DNA of 64,000 nt. It comes from Candidatus Nomurabacteria bacterium (GTDB taxonomy: Bacteria; Patescibacteriota; Minisyncoccia; Phycocordibacterales; UBA9973). Of this stretch, positions 5,966 to 62,707 are shown one piece after another. The first letter of the stretch is position 1. Each line of letters starts with the position of its first letter. Position numbers and translations under genes: made by a program. The notes beneath the pieces are model-generated. The model saw only the letters and a list, made by a program, of their open reading frames with translations. It ran no database searches and was not told the origin of the DNA. The stretch lies in the NCBI GenBank assembly GCA_026395995.1, contig JAPLXQ010000010.1, forward strand, positions 218,179 through 282,178. Reading direction: 5' to 3'.

Positions 5966-6523
5966 TTATTGAGGTTCTTCTTCTTTTAAATCTTTCGCAT
6001 GATCATGAAAGAGAATACCATTTAAGTGGTCTGTTTCATGTTGAAAAATTTGAGCTAAAAGGCCACTAGCCCCACGAACAAACTTAGCACCATTTTCATC
6101 GTAAGCTTCTATTGTGGCCTTTGTAGAGCGGTATGTCTTGCCATAGAGCCATCGCACAGAAAGGCATCCTTCAGGTACCCATTTTTTTGTACGAGAAAGT
6201 TTTGTAATTTTAGGATTAATAAAAACTAAGTTTTTAGGAATTGATTTTTCTTCTTTCTCTACAGTTTCAGTATTAGATTCTTTTGAATTTATCGCTTTAT
6301 CATCCATGAAATTTTTATCAAAAACTTTACCAGCAACAGTAAAAATTCTAAATGAATAACCAATCTGGGGTGCGGCAATAGCTACACCATCATCTTGTTT
6401 TGTTAAAGCTATGTCCATTTCTTTTAATATTTTTTTTATCTTCAAAGAGCCAATATCTTTTATTGGAATTTCAGCGGCAATTTCTCTTAGAACTTTTTCA
6501 TCTCTTTGGAGAATATCTTTCAT
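5966..6523 (-). CDS. def: peptide deformylase
   Basis: IAAPQIGY, EGCLS and QHETDHLNG (HExxH) motifs. Confidence 0.85.
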   Translation of the reverse strand: MKDILQRDEKVLREIAAEIPIKDIGSLKIKKILKEMDIALTKQDDGVAIAAPQIGYSFRIFTVAGKVFDKNFMDDKAINSKESNTETVEKEEKSIPKNLVFINPKITKLSRTKKWVPEGCLSVRWLYGKTYRSTKATIEAYDENGAKFVRGASGLLAQIFQHETDHLNGILFHDHAKDLKEEEPQ

Positions 6524-6533
6524 TTGCTTAAAT

Positions 6534-7844
6534 TTATTTTTCTTTAATATCTTTTAAATATTCTAGAAGTTTTGTTAATTTCACTGTTTCTTGTGAACGA
6601 TTACTCATATCACGTACAATAACAGAATCTTCTAAAGCCTCTTTTAGTCCAAAAATTAGAGCATAAGGAATTTGTAATTTTTCTGCAATTGCTAGCTGGG
6701 CACCTAATGTATCTTTTGATAGTGATTGAGCCATTGGAATGTGTGCTTTACGTAGCATTTCGGTAACATTTAGACTTTTTAATTTTGCATCACTGCCAAG
6801 TTGAATAAAATATACTTTTGGTTTTTTGATAATACGAGGAGCAAGTTTTTTGTACCAAGGCATTAAAAGTACACGATCTGCAGAAATAGAAATACCTACA
6901 GCTGGAACATCTTTTTTACCACCTAATTGTTTTCCAAGATAATCATATCTACCACCTCCTGCAATAGCCATACCCTTTGTTTCACTTTCTGATTCATCAA
7001 TAATTTCAAAAACTGTACGAGTATAATATGAAAGTCCACGTACAAGACACTTGTTCAAATTGTATTGAATACCCATTTCTTCTAAATATTCTAGTACTTC
7101 TTTGAAGTGTTTTTTACAAGCAGGGCAAAGGAATGAAACAGCATCAGGTGCACCTTCGTTTATGACTTTAGTTTTTTCATCTTTTGAATCTAGGATGCGA
7201 AGTGGATTAGTTTTTAATCTTTCACGGTCAATAGCAGGTAAATCACCAATATGTTTTTTGTAATAATTTACTAATTCCTTTATATATCCATTTCGGCATT
7301 CTTTATCACCAATAGAGTTTATATCGATTGAAAGATTTGTAGCACCTGCTTCTTCTAGAATACTCATTCCGGCTTTAATAATGAGTGCATCCATGATACT
7401 CTTTTCACTGCCAAGTGAGTCTAAATCGAATTGATTAAATTGACGGTAACGTCCTTTTTGTGGATTATCATGTCTAAAGACTGGGCCATATTGATAGAAC
7501 ATCACAGGTTGAGGCATATTTTGCATTCCTTGCTCAATATAAGCACGCATGAGTGATCCTGTATGTTCAGGACGAAGAGCAAGATGATCACCACCTTTTG
7601 TTTTAAGTGTGTACATTTCTTTATCAATGATATCTGTCCCTTCTCCAATACCAGAAGTAAAAGTTTCTTCATGTTCCATGATTGGAGTCTCAATTGGCTT
7701 GAATCCATAATAGATAGCAACTTCTTGGGCTTTTTCAAAAAAACCTTGGAAGCTATAATATTCTTCATTCATTATGTCGCGCATACCTTTTGGAGAAGAT
7801 AAATTTTTTCCTGCCTTCTTTGCTGCTGTACTTGTTTTAGTCAT
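6534..7844 (-). CDS. hisS: histidine--tRNA ligase
   Basis: Class II aaRS motifs: LRPEHTGS, FRHDNPQKGRYRQFNQFDLD, AIAGGGRYD. Confidence 0.9.
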   Translation of the reverse strand: MTKTSTAAKKAGKNLSSPKGMRDIMNEEYYSFQGFFEKAQEVAIYYGFKPIETPIMEHEETFTSGIGEGTDIIDKEMYTLKTKGGDHLALRPEHTGSLMRAYIEQGMQNMPQPVMFYQYGPVFRHDNPQKGRYRQFNQFDLDSLGSEKSIMDALIIKAGMSILEEAGATNLSIDINSIGDKECRNGYIKELVNYYKKHIGDLPAIDRERLKTNPLRILDSKDEKTKVINEGAPDAVSFLCPACKKHFKEVLEYLEEMGIQYNLNKCLVRGLSYYTRTVFEIIDESESETKGMAIAGGGRYDYLGKQLGGKKDVPAVGISISADRVLLMPWYKKLAPRIIKKPKVYFIQLGSDAKLKSLNVTEMLRKAHIPMAQSLSKDTLGAQLAIAEKLQIPYALIFGLKEALEDSVIVRDMSNRSQETVKLTKLLEYLKDIKEK

Positions 7845-8528: not shown

Positions 8529-8599
8529 CGCCCCACCCCGTCTGCTATGCATCCACCCCTCCTCATTTTTTACAAAAAAATGAGGAGGGGAATGGGGGT
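8529..8599. repeat. GC-rich palindromic mini-element (CT-arm/GA-arm family) in the lepB-pth divergent region
   Basis: ccccaccccg...cccctcctcattttttacaaaaaaatgaggaggggaatggggg: a 17-bp perfect inverted repeat flanked by CCCCACCCC/GGGGG, in a 30% GC background. Confidence 0.6.
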
Positions 8600-9663: not shown

Positions 9664-9701
9664 TTATGTCAATCAAAAAAATCCCCTTACGGGGATTTTT
9701 T
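9664..9701 (-). terminator. rho-independent terminator of rpsA (17-bp stem)
   Basis: caatcaaaaaaatcccc ttac ggggatttttttgattg, a perfect long inverted repeat. Confidence 0.7.
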
Positions 9702-9711
9702 TGATTGAAGA

Positions 9712-12542: not shown

Positions 12543-15014
12543 ATGGCAAAAAAAACTTCACCAACAACTGAAGAAGAACCTCTTATTAACCCAAGCCTAG
12601 GTATTGTGCCAGTTAATATTGTTTCTGAAATGAAAGAATCCTACCTCGCTTATGCGATGTCTGTCATTACTGCGCGCGCGCTTCCTGATGTTCGTGACGG
12701 ATTAAAACCAGTTCACCGTCGTATTTTGTTTGCGATGAATGAAATGGGTCTTACTTCTTCTTCACGTTTCCGTAAATCTGCAGCTGTAGTCGGAGATGTG
12801 CTTGGAAAATATCATCCACATGGTGATGCTTCTGTCTATGATGCTATGGTTAATATGGCGCAAGATTTTTCTTATCGTTACCCTTTGGTAATAGGACAAG
12901 GAAACTTCGGTTCCATCGATGGAGATAATGCTGCTGCTATGCGTTATACCGAAGCTAAGATGTCTAAAGTTTCAAATGAGCTTCTTCGTGATTTAGAAAA
13001 AGAAACTGTTGATTTCAGACCAAACTATGATCAGACTCGTAAAGAGCCTGTAGTTTTTCCTTCTGCTGTTCCAGCACTTTTGTTGAATGGTACTCTCGGT
13101 ATTGCTGTCGGTATGGCGACAAATATTCCTTCACACAATCTCGCAGAAGTCGTCGATGCGACTTTGCATTTGATTGAAAATGATGAAGCGACTACTGAAG
13201 ATTTGATGCAGTTTGTGAAAGGCCCTGATTTTCCTACTGGCGGACTCGTTTATGGCCAAAAAGATATGTTGCATGCTTATTCTACAGGGCGTGGAGGTGT
13301 CGTTTGTCGTGGTGAAGCTGAAATAATTGAGCAAAAAGGTGGAATGTTTCAAATCATTATTACTTCAATTCCTTTTCGTGTAAACAAATCAAATTTGATT
13401 ATGGCTATTGCTGAGCTTGTTCAAGAAAAAAAGATTGAAGGTATTAAAGGTTTGCGTGATGAATCTACAAAAGATATCCGTATTGCTATCGATTTGAAAG
13501 CTGGAGCTTATCCTGAAAAAGTTTTAAATTATATTTACAAAAATACTCAACTCGAACAAAATTTTAATTTCAATATGGTAGCTCTTGTTGACGGTGTTCC
13601 TCAGACTCTTTCATTGAAATCAATTTTATCTGAATTTATTGGTCACCGAAAAGAGGTTGTCAAAAGACGTTCTATTTATGAACTTCGAAGAGCCGAAGAG
13701 CGTGAGCATATTTTACTTGGCTTGAAAAAAGCATTGGATTTTATTGATAAAGTTATCAAGACAATTCGTGCTTCTAAAGATGGAGCAAGTGCTAAGATTG
13801 CTTTGATGAAAGAATTTAAATTCTCCGATTTACAAGCTCAAGCTATTTTGGATATGAAATTACAAAAGCTTGCTGGTCTTGAGAGAAAGCTGATTGAAGA
13901 AGAATTAAAAGAGCGTCAAGCTTTCATTAAAGAGATGAAAGATTTGATTGCTAGTGCAAAGAAAATGTTGAAAGTTGTCTCCGAAGAATTAACAGAAATT
14001 CGTGAAAAATATGCCGACGAAAGACGTACAAAAATAATCAAAGGAGGAGTGAAAGAAATTTCTGAAGATGATCTTGTTCCAGAAAAAGAAACAATGCTAG
14101 TCTTTACTGCTGGTGGCTATATTAAGCGCACTGATCCTGGTGAATACAAATCACAAAAGCGTGGAGGTGTCGGCGTTGTCGACCTTGAAACAAAAGAAGA
14201 AGATTTTGTGACAATGCTCGTGTCTGGTTCTACACATAGTGATTTATTGTTCTTCACAAACTTAGGTAAAGCATATCAAATAAAAATGTATGACATACCA
14301 GAAGGCCGTCGCGCGACAAAAGGAAAATCAATTATGAATTTCTTGTCTTTGGCTGGTGAAGAAAAAGTCACTTCTATTTTGCCAATGCCAAAAGAATTGA
14401 AAAAGAATCCTATTTCTCTAATGCTTGTAACTAAAAATGGAACTGCCAAGAAGATGGCCGGAGAAGCCTTTAAAGATGTTCGCCGAAGTGGACTTATTTC
14501 TATTAAGCTTGATAAAGGTGATGAGCTTGCTTCAGCACTTATTACAGAAAAAGGAGATGAAGTAATGCTCGCTACAAGTGAAGGACAGTCAATCCGATTC
14601 AAAGAATCCGACATTCGTGAAATGGGACGTACTGCAGGAGGTGTGCGTGGAATGAAGCTTGGTAAAGGTGATAGTATTATCGGAGTTGAAGTAATAAAGA
14701 AAGATAATAAAGATGGATCATTCCTTACAATGTCTGCAAATGGACTCGGAAAGAAAACATCACTTAAAGAATATAAAGTACAAAACCGTGGAGGTTCAGG
14801 TATCAAAACTGCAAAAGTCACTCCAAAAACTGGCAAGCTCATCGTAGCGAAAGTTATCACAGGCAATGAAGAAGAATTAATTGCTATGTCTAAAAAAGGA
14901 CAAGTTATCCGTACAGCCCTAAAAGATATTCCATCACTCGGAAGACAAACTCAAGGTGTCACAATCATGCGCCTCCGCGCTGGTGATGGTATTGCATCAC
15001 TCACGTGTGCATAG
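12543..15014 (+). CDS. gyrA: DNA gyrase subunit A
   Basis: [25 protein letters not shown], active-site Tyr region, C-terminal beta-pinwheel repeats. Confidence 0.95.
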
Positions 15015-15578: not shown

Positions 15579-15599
15579 GTGCAAAGTCGAACTTTGCAC
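15579..15599. repeat. REP-like 21-bp palindrome, copy 1 (inverted relative to copies 2 and 3)
   Basis: gtgcaaagtcgaactttgcac. Confidence 0.7.
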
Positions 15600-15627
15600 A
15601 AATATAATTCTTTTGTATAATTTAATT

Positions 15628-16302
15628 ATGAAAAGTAAAAATATTGCTCCCGAAGAGTATTATCATATTTACAACAGGGGAATGCAAAAACAACCTATTT
15701 TTGAAAATGACTCAGACAGGCTACGTTTTTTATTTTTGATTTTAACCTTTCAAGGTAAAGAACTTATAAAAAATATTAGTCGTGAAGTAAAACAAAATGT
15801 GCAAAGTTCGACTTTGCACATTTCTAAAGAAACAACTAAAAATGTTGCGCAAAATCGACAAGTTGAATTAGTTAGTTTTTGTTTAATGCCAAACCATTTT
15901 CATTTGATTGTAAAAGAAAAAGAAGAAGGTGGAATAGCAAAATATATGCAAAGAATTTTAACTAGCTATACAAAGTATTTTAATAAAAAATATAATAAAA
16001 GCGGACATCTTTTTCAGGGGTCTTATAAGAGTATTTTAATTGAAGATGATCGGCAGTTAATGCATTTGTCTGCCTATATTCATAAAAATCCTTCCGAAAT
16101 TAAAGGTTGGAAAAATAAAGAAGATAAATATTATTGGTCAAGTTATAATGATTATATTTATGAAAATCGTTGGGATGAATTACTTTCACAAAATATTATC
16201 CTAGATAGATATAATATAGATAAAGAAAAGGGAACTTATAAGAAATTCGTCGAAACCAGTTTAGCTAAAGAAACTGTGCAAAGTTCGACTTTGCACAGTT
16301 AA
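15628..16302 (+). CDS. REP-associated tyrosine transposase (RAYT, IS200/IS605 TnpA-like HUH enzyme)
   Basis: YHIYNRG N-terminal motif, HUH motif LMPNHFHLIV, catalytic Tyr region GHLFQGSYKS...YIHKNP; flanked by REP palindromes. Start moved to ATG 15628; the tracked N-terminus translates REP copy 1. Confidence 0.7.
   Translation: MKSKNIAPEEYYHIYNRGMQKQPIFENDSDRLRFLFLILTFQGKELIKNISREVKQNVQSSTLHISKETTKNVAQNRQVELVSFCLMPNHFHLIVKEKEEGGIAKYMQRILTSYTKYFNKKYNKSGHLFQGSYKSILIEDDRQLMHLSAYIHKNPSEIKGWKNKEDKYYWSSYNDYIYENRWDELLSQNIILDRYNIDKEKGTYKKFVETSLAKETVQSSTLHS
15799..15819. repeat. REP-like palindrome, copy 2, inside the RAYT ORF
   Basis: gtgcaaagttcgactttgcac, encodes ..VQSSTLHIS.. in frame. Confidence 0.7.
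16276..16296. repeat. REP-like palindrome, copy 3, at the RAYT 3-prime end
   Basis: gtgcaaagttcgactttgcac, encodes the C-terminal ..VQSSTLHS*. Confidence 0.7.
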
Positions 16303-41571: not shown

Positions 41572-43341
41572 ATGAAAAAAGAAAAAACATCATGGAATTT
41601 TGGTTTATTATATAAAAATGAAAAAGACCCACAAATCGAAAAAGACATGCAAGAAATAGAAAATCTTTGCGGTAATTTTGAAAAAAAATATAAAAAATTA
41701 GTTTTTATAAAAAATCCATTAATACTTTCTAAGGCTATGGATGATTACGAAAAGCTTTGCGGATCTTTAAATAAAAGTAAACCATGGTGGTATTTTACAT
41801 TACGTAAAGATATAAATGCTATGGATGAAATAGCACAATCAGCAAGTACAAAATTTCAACAAAGAATTACTGTGGCTACAAATAAAATAACTTTTTTTAC
41901 TCTTGAAATAGGAAAAATTCCAGCACAAAAACAAAAATCTTTTCTTGCAAATAAATCTCTTTTAAAATATTCTTATTTTTTGGGGCGTATTTTTGAAACA
42001 GCAAAATATAGTTTATCTGAAAAAGAAGAACAATTAAAAGATTTACTTTCACAGTCTAGTTATGAAATGTGGGTTGATGGACAAGAAAAAGTTTTAAACC
42101 AGCAAACAGTAGAACATAAAGGTAAACAAATTCCTATTTCACAGGCTATGAATATATTGGCAGATTTACCTAAAAAAGATAGAAGGGATCTACATCAATT
42201 GATTTTGAAATCTTTAAAATCAATTAGCTATTTTGCTGAAGCAGAAATGAATGCCATCTGTAATTATAAAAAAGTTAATAGTGATCTTCGTGGTTTTAAA
42301 AAACCATATAGTTCTACTATTCTTGCTTATGAAAATGATGAAAAAACAATTGAGACTCTTGTGAGTACTGTCACAAAAGGTTTTAAAGTTAGTCGTCGTT
42401 TTTACAAACTTCATTCAGAACTTTTAGGTGAAAAACAAATTACACTGGCTGACCGTGGTGTGAAGATAGGAGAAATAAAAAAGAAATTTGATTTTAATAC
42501 TTCTGTTGAAATTGTTTCAAGGGCATTTACTAGTGTTGATAAAAAATATGCAGATATGTTGCATAGTTTTATTTCAAACGAACAGTTTGATGTTTACCCT
42601 AAAAAGGGTAAAAGAGGGGGAGCATATTGTTGGGGTATGGGTTCATTGCCAATATTTGTTTTATTGAATCATTCAGACAATATTAGGTCAGTAGAAACAT
42701 TAGCTCATGAAATGGGTCATGCTATTCATGGTGAGCTCAGTAGAACGCAACCGGTTTTGTATCGTGGGCATCCTATCTCTACCGCTGAAGTTGCTAGTAC
42801 CTTTTTTGAACAAGTTGCTATCAATAGTATGGAATCATTACTTTCAGATGAAGAGAAAATAATTTTTCTTCATAATAAAATAATGGGTGATATCACTACT
42901 ATTTTTAGGCAAATAGCGTTATTTAATTTTGAATGTGAATTACATCAAAAAATTGCTACTGAGGGTCAAGTATCAAAAGAAGAAATATCACGTCTTATGG
43001 CAAAAAATTTAAGATCATATCTCGGTGATTCTGTAAAAGTAGAAGATGAAGATGGGTATTGTTTTGTGAGCTGGTCACATATACGTCGCTTTTTTTATGT
43101 TTATTCATATGCTTATGGACAGCTAATTAGTCGCGCATTATTTGAGAATTGGAAAAAAGACCCAGCATATGCTAAAAAAGTAGAACAATTTTTATCTGCT
43201 GGACGATCAATGAGCCCTAAAGATATTTTTAAATCTATCGGTATAGATACTTCTGATCCAAAGTTTTTTGAAACAGGAATTAAAAGTATTGAAAATGATA
43301 TTAAAAAGCTTGAGCTTCTTGCAAAAAAGTTTAAAAAATAA
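41572..43341 (+). CDS. pepF: oligoendopeptidase F (M3B family)
   Basis: HEMGHAIH zinc motif; length and overall pattern of M3B. Confidence 0.8.
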   Translation: MKKEKTSWNFGLLYKNEKDPQIEKDMQEIENLCGNFEKKYKKLVFIKNPLILSKAMDDYEKLCGSLNKSKPWWYFTLRKDINAMDEIAQSASTKFQQRITVATNKITFFTLEIGKIPAQKQKSFLANKSLLKYSYFLGRIFETAKYSLSEKEEQLKDLLSQSSYEMWVDGQEKVLNQQTVEHKGKQIPISQAMNILADLPKKDRRDLHQLILKSLKSISYFAEAEMNAICNYKKVNSDLRGFKKPYSSTILAYENDEKTIETLVSTVTKGFKVSRRFYKLHSELLGEKQITLADRGVKIGEIKKKFDFNTSVEIVSRAFTSVDKKYADMLHSFISNEQFDVYPKKGKRGGAYCWGMGSLPIFVLLNHSDNIRSVETLAHEMGHAIHGELSRTQPVLYRGHPISTAEVASTFFEQVAINSMESLLSDEEKIIFLHNKIMGDITTIFRQIALFNFECELHQKIATEGQVSKEEISRLMAKNLRSYLGDSVKVEDEDGYCFVSWSHIRRFFYVYSYAYGQLISRALFENWKKDPAYAKKVEQFLSAGRSMSPKDIFKSIGIDTSDPKFFETGIKSIENDIKKLELLAKKFKK

Positions 43342-43358
43342 TACTTATTTACTAAAGC

Positions 43359-43399
43359 AAAAACATAAAAACCTATATTATATAGGTTTTTATGTTTTT
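43359..43399 (+). terminator. rho-independent terminator of pepF
   Basis: aaaacctatattatataggtttttatgttttt. Confidence 0.6.
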
Positions 43400-43463
43400 G
43401 CTTGACTTTATATTTATATTGTATTAGACTATAATTCTCGTTCATTGAAATATAAATAACTTG

Positions 43464-45657: not shown

Positions 45658-45698
45658 ATTGCCCGGCGATTATATAATCGCCGGGCAATTTTATTTTG
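45658..45698 (+). terminator. rho-independent terminator of purA
   Basis: attgcccggcgattatataatcgccgggcaat followed by TTTATTTT. Confidence 0.7.
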
Positions 45699-62668: not shown

Positions 62669-62678
62669 CACTAAAATA

Positions 62679-62702
62679 AAAAACCGCTTAGAGCGGTTTT
62701 TT
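62679..62702. terminator. bidirectional rho-independent terminator
   Basis: aaaaaccgcttagagcggtttttt. Confidence 0.65.
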
Positions 62703-62707
62703 ATTTT

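Follow-up and report, generated by a model that had tools for sequence, protein, structure and literature searches.

A probable REP/RAYT unit of Patescibacteria with a conserved palindrome inside the gene of its HUH nuclease

Introduction

Repetitive extragenic palindromes (REPs) and REP-associated tyrosine transposases (RAYTs) are the textbook case of a domesticated transposase that lives with its own short repeats, and raise the question of how enzyme and repeat remain matched over the long term. Here, we analyze a locus of this kind in a 64-kb stretch of DNA from a Candidatus Nomurabacteria bacterium (contig JAPLXQ010000010.1; this stretch is referred to as the window), in which a gene for a RAYT-like HUH nuclease of the Y1 type is accompanied by three copies of one 21-nt palindrome, one at either end of the gene and one within its coding sequence.

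RAYTs have been described as single-copy, domesticated genes (PMC5581495). In E. coli, S. maltophilia and Marinomonas, the enzyme binds its REP as a folded single strand, next to which it cleaves and joins DNA (PMC8266576), and one criterion for REPs is that the hairpin has GTAG or CGTC at its foot (PMC3733652, PMC8266576). The group 3 REPtrons (S. maltophilia TnpA-REP; PMC8266576), in which the REP is 23 nt long with an 8-bp perfect palindrome and a 3-nt loop, resemble the locus described here in having a single Y1 HUH gene flanked by cognate short perfect palindromes with a 3-nt loop that defines orientation. Here, in contrast, the GTAG tag is missing, the stem comprises 9–10 bp, the coding sequence contains a third copy, the protein has an N-terminal insertion and exceeds theirs by ~60 residues, the host belongs to the Patescibacteria, and the copies number a handful rather than tens to hundreds. 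E. coli RayT (YafM, TnpA-REP; 4ER8) is the top structural match of our protein, aligns with it at the HUH motif and the catalytic tyrosine, and is, as our gene appears to be, a single-copy, domesticated-type gene next to REPs; however, the E. coli REPs are imperfect with a bulge, have an essential GTAG, are extragenic and number in the hundreds, and none lies inside rayT (4ER8; PMC8266576).

REPs have been described within genes and across the ends of RAYT open reading frames (ORFs), and intragenic REPs as well as Rickettsia palindromic elements are in-frame palindromes in housekeeping or repair genes, tolerated as an extra peptide (PMC3733652). Compared with these, the elements analyzed here span only 7 codons, are open in all six frames, occupy orthologous sites in several genomes, come in lineage-specific types, and include one in a RAYT gene. 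Elements of the IS200/IS605 family (IS608, ISDra2) share the Y1 HUH fold and have subterminal DNA hairpins that flank the gene and are recognized by the enzyme, but their ends are imperfect and mutually different, they exist in multiple copies that move as whole units, and no hairpin resembling the ends is present inside them. We found no description of a conserved, co-evolving REP within a RAYT coding sequence (in PMC3733652, PMC5581495, PMC6006769 or the literature searched) and none of REP/RAYT systems in Patescibacteria (in the literature searched, including the 2018 HUH phylogenomic survey, PMC6006769), an absence that is not proof of novelty in either case.

Results

The palindrome occurs at exactly three sites in the window, where none is expected by chance (sequence reading and pattern search); no further match was found in the 64 kb even with up to 3 mismatches, and no copy lies outside the RAYT locus. 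Each copy has 9-nt arms, or 10-nt arms counting a conserved T before and A after, around a 3-nt loop, and the 21-mer is free of stop codons in all six frames. The 5' copy (15579-15599) is separated from the ATG by 28 nt, and in sequence it is exactly reverse-complementary to the internal and 3' copies. Its stem comprises 10 bp when T15578 and A15600 are counted and that of the 3' copy 13 bp with its flanks; folded as single-stranded DNA, the three sites form stems of 10–13 bp with dG values of -11 to -13.7 kcal/mol (z ~ -7). A first-pass annotation of this DNA had listed the three palindromes and the RAYT hallmark motifs, all of which are present as quoted, and had given TCGA/CGAA as the palindrome center: the sites are the same, but the loop is 3 nt and the quoted letters combine an arm end with the loop.

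The internal hairpin is a property of a clade and not of this gene alone. Among the homolog loci analyzed (80 from metagenomes and 7 from genomes fetched), the DNA of codons 58-64 was read in 82. At least 7 of 9 Watson–Crick pairs were present there in 55 of the 82 loci compared with 0.4% of the other in-frame 21-mers of the same genes, and the internal stems were often perfect over 8–17 bp, including in lineages whose proteins have diverged to 50–55% identity. In a gap-free alignment of 54 internal sites, 94.8% of cells were paired, a percentage inflated because rows had been preselected to have no fewer than 7 of 9 pairs; changes on both sides were present in 8 of the 10 pairs. Compensatory cells in this alignment, the counts of which are unaffected by the preselection, numbered 121 compared with 46 in shuffles (0 of 500 shuffles reached 121), and the covariation score was 0.575 versus at most 0.10 in slid registers. 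Non-Watson–Crick pairs comprised 20 A.C and 15 G.T, that is, they had no wobble bias, and the finding that A.C is about as common as G.T points to a constraint on DNA rather than RNA.

The peptide encoded at the hairpin columns is VQSSTLH in most close homologs and VKHSVFN, EQHRMLL, VQSRALD, VQPSGLN, GQSSALT or TKYSVFS elsewhere, with residue i and residue 8-i encodable by reverse-complementary codons. The peptide is thus radically altered while the palindrome persists, which argues that the constraint acts on the nucleic acid and rules out protein-level selection as the cause of the conservation. When protein sequences only were considered, 92 of 110 close homologs were fully palindrome-compatible at codons 58-64 (null 0.6%), but this was true of just 7 of the 61 alignable members that represent the wider family; the internal hairpin therefore defines a subclade with roughly at least 50% identity to the query. 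The homolog alignments exclude a hairpin private to this gene, and the first-pass reading of the internal copy as a self-inserted REP does not hold, given the same codons in 92 of the 110 proteins and 55 of the 82 loci. Judged from these alignments, the internal copy is ancient and fixed in the clade and not a recent self-insertion.

The three copies also change in concert. In the 55 loci, a hairpin with the locus's own stem lies 204–231 nt upstream of the internal copy in 44 cases and 462–544 nt downstream in 43, and 38 loci have the lineage-specific hairpin at both gene ends; those without both flank copies are mostly explained by contig ends or the 2-mismatch limit of the search. Thus, GTTAAACAC-TCG-GTGTTTAAC in L039, GTGCAAAGC-CAG-GCTTTGCAC in L037 and GGTCAAAGC in L058 each occur three times at the respective RAYT locus. 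Flanks are often perfect where the internal copy has 1–2 mismatches, as in L019 and L044, and the internal copy of L036 is also less perfect than its flanks. A compensatory double change in L082 is common to both flanks and absent from the internal copy, and the same imperfect pair is present in both flanks of L043, L080, L093 and L075/L061; identical imperfections in both flanks point to copying between sites. Hairpin type tracks protein clusters, with an identity of 0.63 for same-arm and 0.54 for different-arm pairs (hairpin residues masked). Extra hairpins lie upstream of the gene in L020 (three) and in L019, L024 and L030 (two each).

The ORF contains the motifs YHIYNRG, LMPNHFHLIV, GHLFQGSYKS and YIHKNP, and it matches the Pfam family Y1_Tnp (PF01797) with 53.6 bits versus a cutoff of 23 (E 3e-14). 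The match is limited to residues 64-154, on profile positions 26-121, because of an N-terminal insertion that is not aligned. The top NCBIfam match is REP_Tyr_transpos (NF047646) with 51.1 bits, compared with 16.8 bits for the IS200 model. Approximately 2,400 homologs were found, the top 120 of which are 56–73% identical, ~215–225 residues long and all from Patescibacteria, and the same protein sequence has been annotated in a metagenome-assembled genome (MAG) of Candidatus Nomurabacteria. Whether queried with the protein itself or with its family profile, PDB sequences gave marginal IS200/ISDra2 matches only, and a fold search was needed. Using an AlphaFold model built from 79 homologs (pLDDT 89), the top PDB match was 4ER8_A, the E. 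coli TnpA-REP bound to a REP hairpin (E 1.6e-6, TM 0.70 on the target, rmsd 3.2 A), while the TnpA proteins of IS608, ISDra2 and IS200 ranked below it (TM 0.5–0.66 and larger rmsd for IS608/ISDra2).

Profile alignment to E. coli RayT, at an hhalign probability of 28% indicative of a weak sequence relationship, placed H90-F-H92 on HMH and Y150 (AYIHKNP) on Y115 (DYIYINP), the residue altered in the published catalytic mutant Y115F (PMC8266576). As the first-pass annotation had proposed, the protein is, on the strength of alignment and modeling, a RAYT-like Y1 HUH enzyme in which the HUH motif and the predicted catalytic tyrosine, invariant in the family, are intact. The query has ~31 residues more than E. 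coli RayT ahead of the aligned block. In the AlphaFold model, this N-terminal extra forms a helix (50-57) and a small β-hairpin (58-63), followed by a helix (67-75), and the modeled β-hairpin 58-63 is exactly the segment encoded by the internal DNA hairpin. The window and every homolog locus have one RAYT gene each, and no locus has two units.

The 5' copy is part of a promoter-like layout (Table 1), in which TTTGCA (15593-15598), a 17-nt spacer and TATAAT (15616-15621) are followed by 6 nt before the ATG at 15628. In 39 of 42 loci, the stretch from the 5' hairpin to the ATG contains a match to TATAAT at 5 or more of the 6 positions. In 33 of the 42, a TATAAT-like match ends 4–10 nt (mode 6) before the ATG, compared with 28% of control ORFs, and this position implies a leaderless transcript. 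The gap from the hairpin end to the -10 element is bimodal: where it is 15–20 nt, the final 6 nt of the hairpin (TTGCAC, TTTGAC, TTTAAC) form a -35-like box, and where it is -1 to 6 nt, the hairpin occupies the spacer. Consensus match and geometry imply that the 5' copy overlaps a putative promoter of the leaderless type.

The 3' hairpin usually starts 4–30 nt past the stop codon, and overlaps the last codons in the window and a few other loci. No T-tract lies behind the plus-strand hairpins in the window, and plus-strand intrinsic terminators were ruled out on this basis; a look-alike is present on the minus strand at the internal copy only. There (minus strand 15824-15794), the hairpin and the complement of conserved K-Q-N codons resemble an intrinsic terminator with a 14-bp stem and then a T-run, which might keep antisense transcripts from entering the gene or result by coincidence from the AAA-CAA-AAT codons. 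An Rfam search gave no family match, and an RNA structure was rejected for want of a wobble bias and an Rfam match.

Table 1 Coordinates of the features of the RAYT-like locus in the window
Feature	Position	Strand	Description
5' REP hairpin	15579..15599		GTGCAAAGT-CGA-ACTTTGCAC; loop inverted relative to the other two copies
Promoter-like site	15593..15621	+	-35-like TTTGCA/TTGCAC from the right arm of the 5' hairpin; consensus match
RAYT-like Y1 HUH gene	15628..16302 (stop included)	+	224 amino acids, ATG at 15628
Internal REP hairpin	15799..15819	+	GTGCAAAGT-TCG-ACTTTGCAC; in frame, codons 58-64 (VQSSTLH)
HUH motif H90-F91-H92	15895..15903	+	Invariant in the homolog alignment; aligns to E. 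coli RayT HMH
Predicted catalytic tyrosine Y150 (AYIHKNP)	16075..16077	+	Invariant in the homolog alignments; aligns to E. coli RayT Y115
3' REP hairpin	16276..16296	+	GTGCAAAGT-TCG-ACTTTGCAC; overlaps the last codons, VQSSTLH-S-stop

Outside the window, the exact 21-mer was found in 32 sequence stretches from ~16 Patescibacteria MAGs. Seven of these stretches hold a RAYT homolog with the hairpin trio, and the other 25 have a single copy each and lack a RAYT gene; in several MAGs, 3–5 exact single copies are spread over different contigs, often at their ends. Most single copies are not extragenic but lie in frame within long housekeeping ORFs. The host ORFs encode MnmA (one shared site in four genomes), KsgA (three genomes), a PyrD-like protein (two), TsaD, TruB, UvrC, TrmD, a methyltransferase and a reverse transcriptase. 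The copy in the reverse-transcriptase ORF (group II intron or retron-like), at 2238-2258 of L029, is also in frame and belongs to a Nomurabacteria MAG. No REPIN doublets were found: dispersed copies are single, and pairs near RAYT genes are 55–190 nt apart in either orientation.

At the MnmA site of the four genomes, the 23-nt block is invariant bar one flipped loop, compared with invariance at ~56% of all aligned columns. Among 120 equal-length MnmA orthologs, the 8-residue site reads CAKSNFAQ, CATSDVAQ, CSTPSVAQ, CGSKASAQ, CQSQALAK or a non-palindromic, IINKTKAE-like sequence. At the DNA level, L115 has a perfect TGTGCAACAT-CCG-ATGTTGCACA, L116 a 9-of-10 GTTCAACAC type and L114 a decayed 7-of-9 hairpin, and different hairpin types thus occupy one orthologous site. 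The TrmD segment with the hairpin comprises 45 residues versus 35–37 in most orthologs (70–83% identity), which is an empty-site pattern. The same TrmD loop, after GGGPGM...KLK, is an insertion hot spot with the in-frame extras VQSRTLH, PHVRHVG and NPPAGGG (P0391-P0510), and the latter two look like translated palindromes of other repeat families. The window contains none of the REP-hosting housekeeping genes.

With 25 stretches away from RAYT genes, the palindrome is a dispersed REP-like repeat in related genomes, which supports the first-pass label of REP. The first-pass proposal of actively proliferating REPs, in contrast, finds no support in the handful of exact copies per related genome, several at orthologous sites in housekeeping genes, or in the lack of any copy elsewhere in the window; the combination of few copies and many sites common to several genomes gives no sign of current proliferation. 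A palindrome with three copies only, which that annotation had considered fatal to its own interpretation, is what the 64-kb window contains.

Two kinds of rearrangement were observed at the hairpins. At orthologous sites, the loop is inverted (TCG versus CGA) with stems unchanged, as in RAYT (VQSSTLH versus VQSRTLH) and MnmA (CAKFDFAQ versus CAKSNFAQ; L027 6971-6991 versus L009, L017 and L021), and the aligned sequences imply recurrent hairpin flips or replacement by a copy in the opposite orientation as the probable source. Moreover, a single 9-nt arm (3 codons) is tandemly duplicated in frame beside hairpins, giving QSSTLHTLHI and VLNMLNI in RAYT genes, CSTPSVAQSVAQ in MnmA and SVQSVQS[VQSSTLH] in a PyrD-like gene, and it is duplicated at several intergenic copies; examples are the RAYT coding sequence of L020 (~852-890), L041, L001 (2270-2320), the 3' flank of L044, and proteins P0187 and P0196. 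Recurrent arm duplication might arise by slippage at the hairpin or as a side effect of nuclease action.

No conserved gene neighborhood was found around the RAYT homologs in the 87 homolog loci. In the window, gyrA (12543-15014) is close to the RAYT gene, as it is in 3 of the 87 loci (L044, L057 and L068), adjacent to it or no more than 6 kb away, and gyrA apart, no neighbor is common to RAYT loci. This proximity could be a remnant of synteny or accidental; in E. coli, REPs have been reported to bind gyrase. In L114 (JAQULK010000001.1), a more distant RAYT gene (6548-7228) is flanked by CAGACAGCGCC-TTA/TAA-GGCGCTGTCTG hairpins at 6508-6532 and 7214-7240, with the TAA stop codon of the gene as the 3' hairpin's loop. 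The sigma-70 and DUF8128 genes that bracket this RAYT gene have none between them in L115 and L116. Other palindromes of the window, at 8556-8590, 9669-9708, 62673-62707, 45658-45689 and 43328-43430, are unrelated to the REP and include three bidirectional terminator-like hairpins of the A-run/GC-stem/T-run type, a perfect 32-nt palindrome (ATTGCCCGGCGATTATAT/ATATAATCGCCGGGCAAT) and an imperfect one of 103 nt.

Discussion

Altogether, our results make it probable that this locus is a REP/RAYT unit ("REPtron") of a Patescibacteria-specific Y1 HUH clade with a conserved, co-evolving intragenic REP. By analogy to the TnpA-REP proteins of E. coli and S. maltophilia, the RAYT would recognize the folded single-stranded hairpin, and its cleavage and strand transfer, or templated repair provoked by it, would homogenize all copies including the one in its own gene. 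Binding at the 5' promoter copy may lead to autoregulation, possibly reinforced at the internal copy ~220 nt downstream; autoregulation is the most likely consequence because the 5' copy overlaps the predicted core promoter of a leaderless transcript.

Several observations weigh against this interpretation. The NCBIfam score of 51.1 bits for REP_Tyr_transpos is below the cutoff of 80. A GTAG or CGTC tag beside the hairpin is absent, and the flanks consist of a conserved T before, an A after, and GT at the stem base. The copy number is far below that of classical REPs, and the window is without copies outside the gene. MnmA orthologs with and without the hairpin are equally long, unlike what a simple insertion would give, and the MnmA relic in L114 does not match the hairpin of the resident, distant-type RAYT; outside the GTGCAAAGT group, L114 is the only case with both genes for this comparison, and there the RAYT is distant and the MnmA hairpin decayed. 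TATAAT-like matches are common in this AT-rich DNA, as the control ORFs illustrate, and the roles suggested for the protein and the internal copy are transferred from other systems. Finally, in more distant relatives the internal hairpin has decayed, and matching 5' and 3' hairpins of other types are frequently retained, which makes the internal copy dispensable at least there. Flanking REPs thus represent the general condition, to which one clade has added an internal copy.

What the internal copy contributes divides two further interpretations. It may be a passive passenger, i.e. an ancestral in-frame REP homogenized by gene conversion among three copies within 700 bp, a possibility that overlaps with the REP/RAYT unit proposed here and differs from it only on whether the internal copy does anything. 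The identical imperfections of the flanks, the more frequent imperfection of the internal copy (L019, L044, L036), its decay in distant lineages that retain the flanks, and the tolerance of the same element by other genes are all in line with such a passenger; yet perfect stems of 8–17 bp are kept across lineages with proteins at 50–55% identity, and the double change in the flanks of L082 that is absent inside indicates that conversion does not always operate and that pairing is kept independently. We regard a pure passenger as conceivable but on balance unlikely, and the perfect maintenance of the internal copy across the clade argues, at the level of sequence, against pure neutrality. Conversely, the internal hairpin might be a functional cis-element, either because the RAYT sets its own expression via the internal and promoter copies or because the internal copy is a protected master that re-templates flanking and dispersed REPs. 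We consider this idea doubtful; if true, the seven hairpin codons, which also encode a surface β-hairpin of the modeled enzyme, would let a change in REP sequence automatically alter the protein, and the evolution of nuclease and target would be coupled in one DNA stretch.

Other explanations dispense with a REP/RAYT unit or with the age of the internal copy. If the association with the HUH gene were incidental, the hairpins could be RNA or transcriptional elements (terminators, mRNA stabilizers or attenuators) or the operators of another factor, a view in line with a 3' copy that abuts the stop codon, like many REPs (PMC3733652), a 5' copy that overlaps a promoter-like site, and the terminator-like minus-strand internal copy with its T-run. 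It is improbable given that non-Watson–Crick pairs have no excess of G.U over A.C, that a T-tract after the plus-strand hairpins and an Rfam match are both lacking, that the same hairpin lies within unrelated housekeeping genes, where a terminator would harm, and that hairpin type strictly co-varies with RAYT lineage. That the hairpin-gene-hairpin arrangement is an autonomous IS200/IS605-type insertion sequence, mobile as a whole with the outer hairpins as ends, appears quite improbable to us, despite a common fold superfamily, subterminal hairpins that bracket the gene, a varying genomic neighborhood, and the presence of RAYT in L114 versus its absence between the same syntenic genes in L115 and L116. 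Two copies never occur in any locus or window, both "ends" are one perfect palindrome of variable relative orientation, the hairpin is dispersed alone without the gene, and an internal end-like hairpin would split the element in two; moreover, the top fold match is the domesticated RayT and not the TnpA proteins of insertion sequences, and hairpin type tracks protein clusters, as vertical descent predicts. A recent insertion by a proliferating REP family into the coding sequence of its own transposase would be hard to reconcile with an internal copy that sits at the same codons down to ~50% protein identity with lineage-specific compensatory variants, with homologs that are all equally long, with the lack of any other copy in 64 kb, and with dispersed copies at orthologous positions in different genomes, which are hence old. 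We hold such an event to be very improbable, even with the three identical copies at the locus, the extra upstream hairpins in L020, L019, L024 and L030, and TrmD as a true insertion relative to most orthologs in its favor.

If the locus is a REP/RAYT unit with a co-evolving intragenic REP, the clade comprises dozens of hairpin variants, each specific to a lineage, found as three copies in a single locus and paired with its presumed reader protein, and provides material for finding specificity determinants. The conserved hairpin would be both coding sequence and probable binding site, and hence a case of overlapping codes. For annotation, short segments of the VQSSTLH type in these proteins should be taken as repeat-derived. 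In the gene-dense, reduced genomes of Patescibacteria, such repeats appear to persist mainly as 7-codon modules, open in six frames, inside essential genes.

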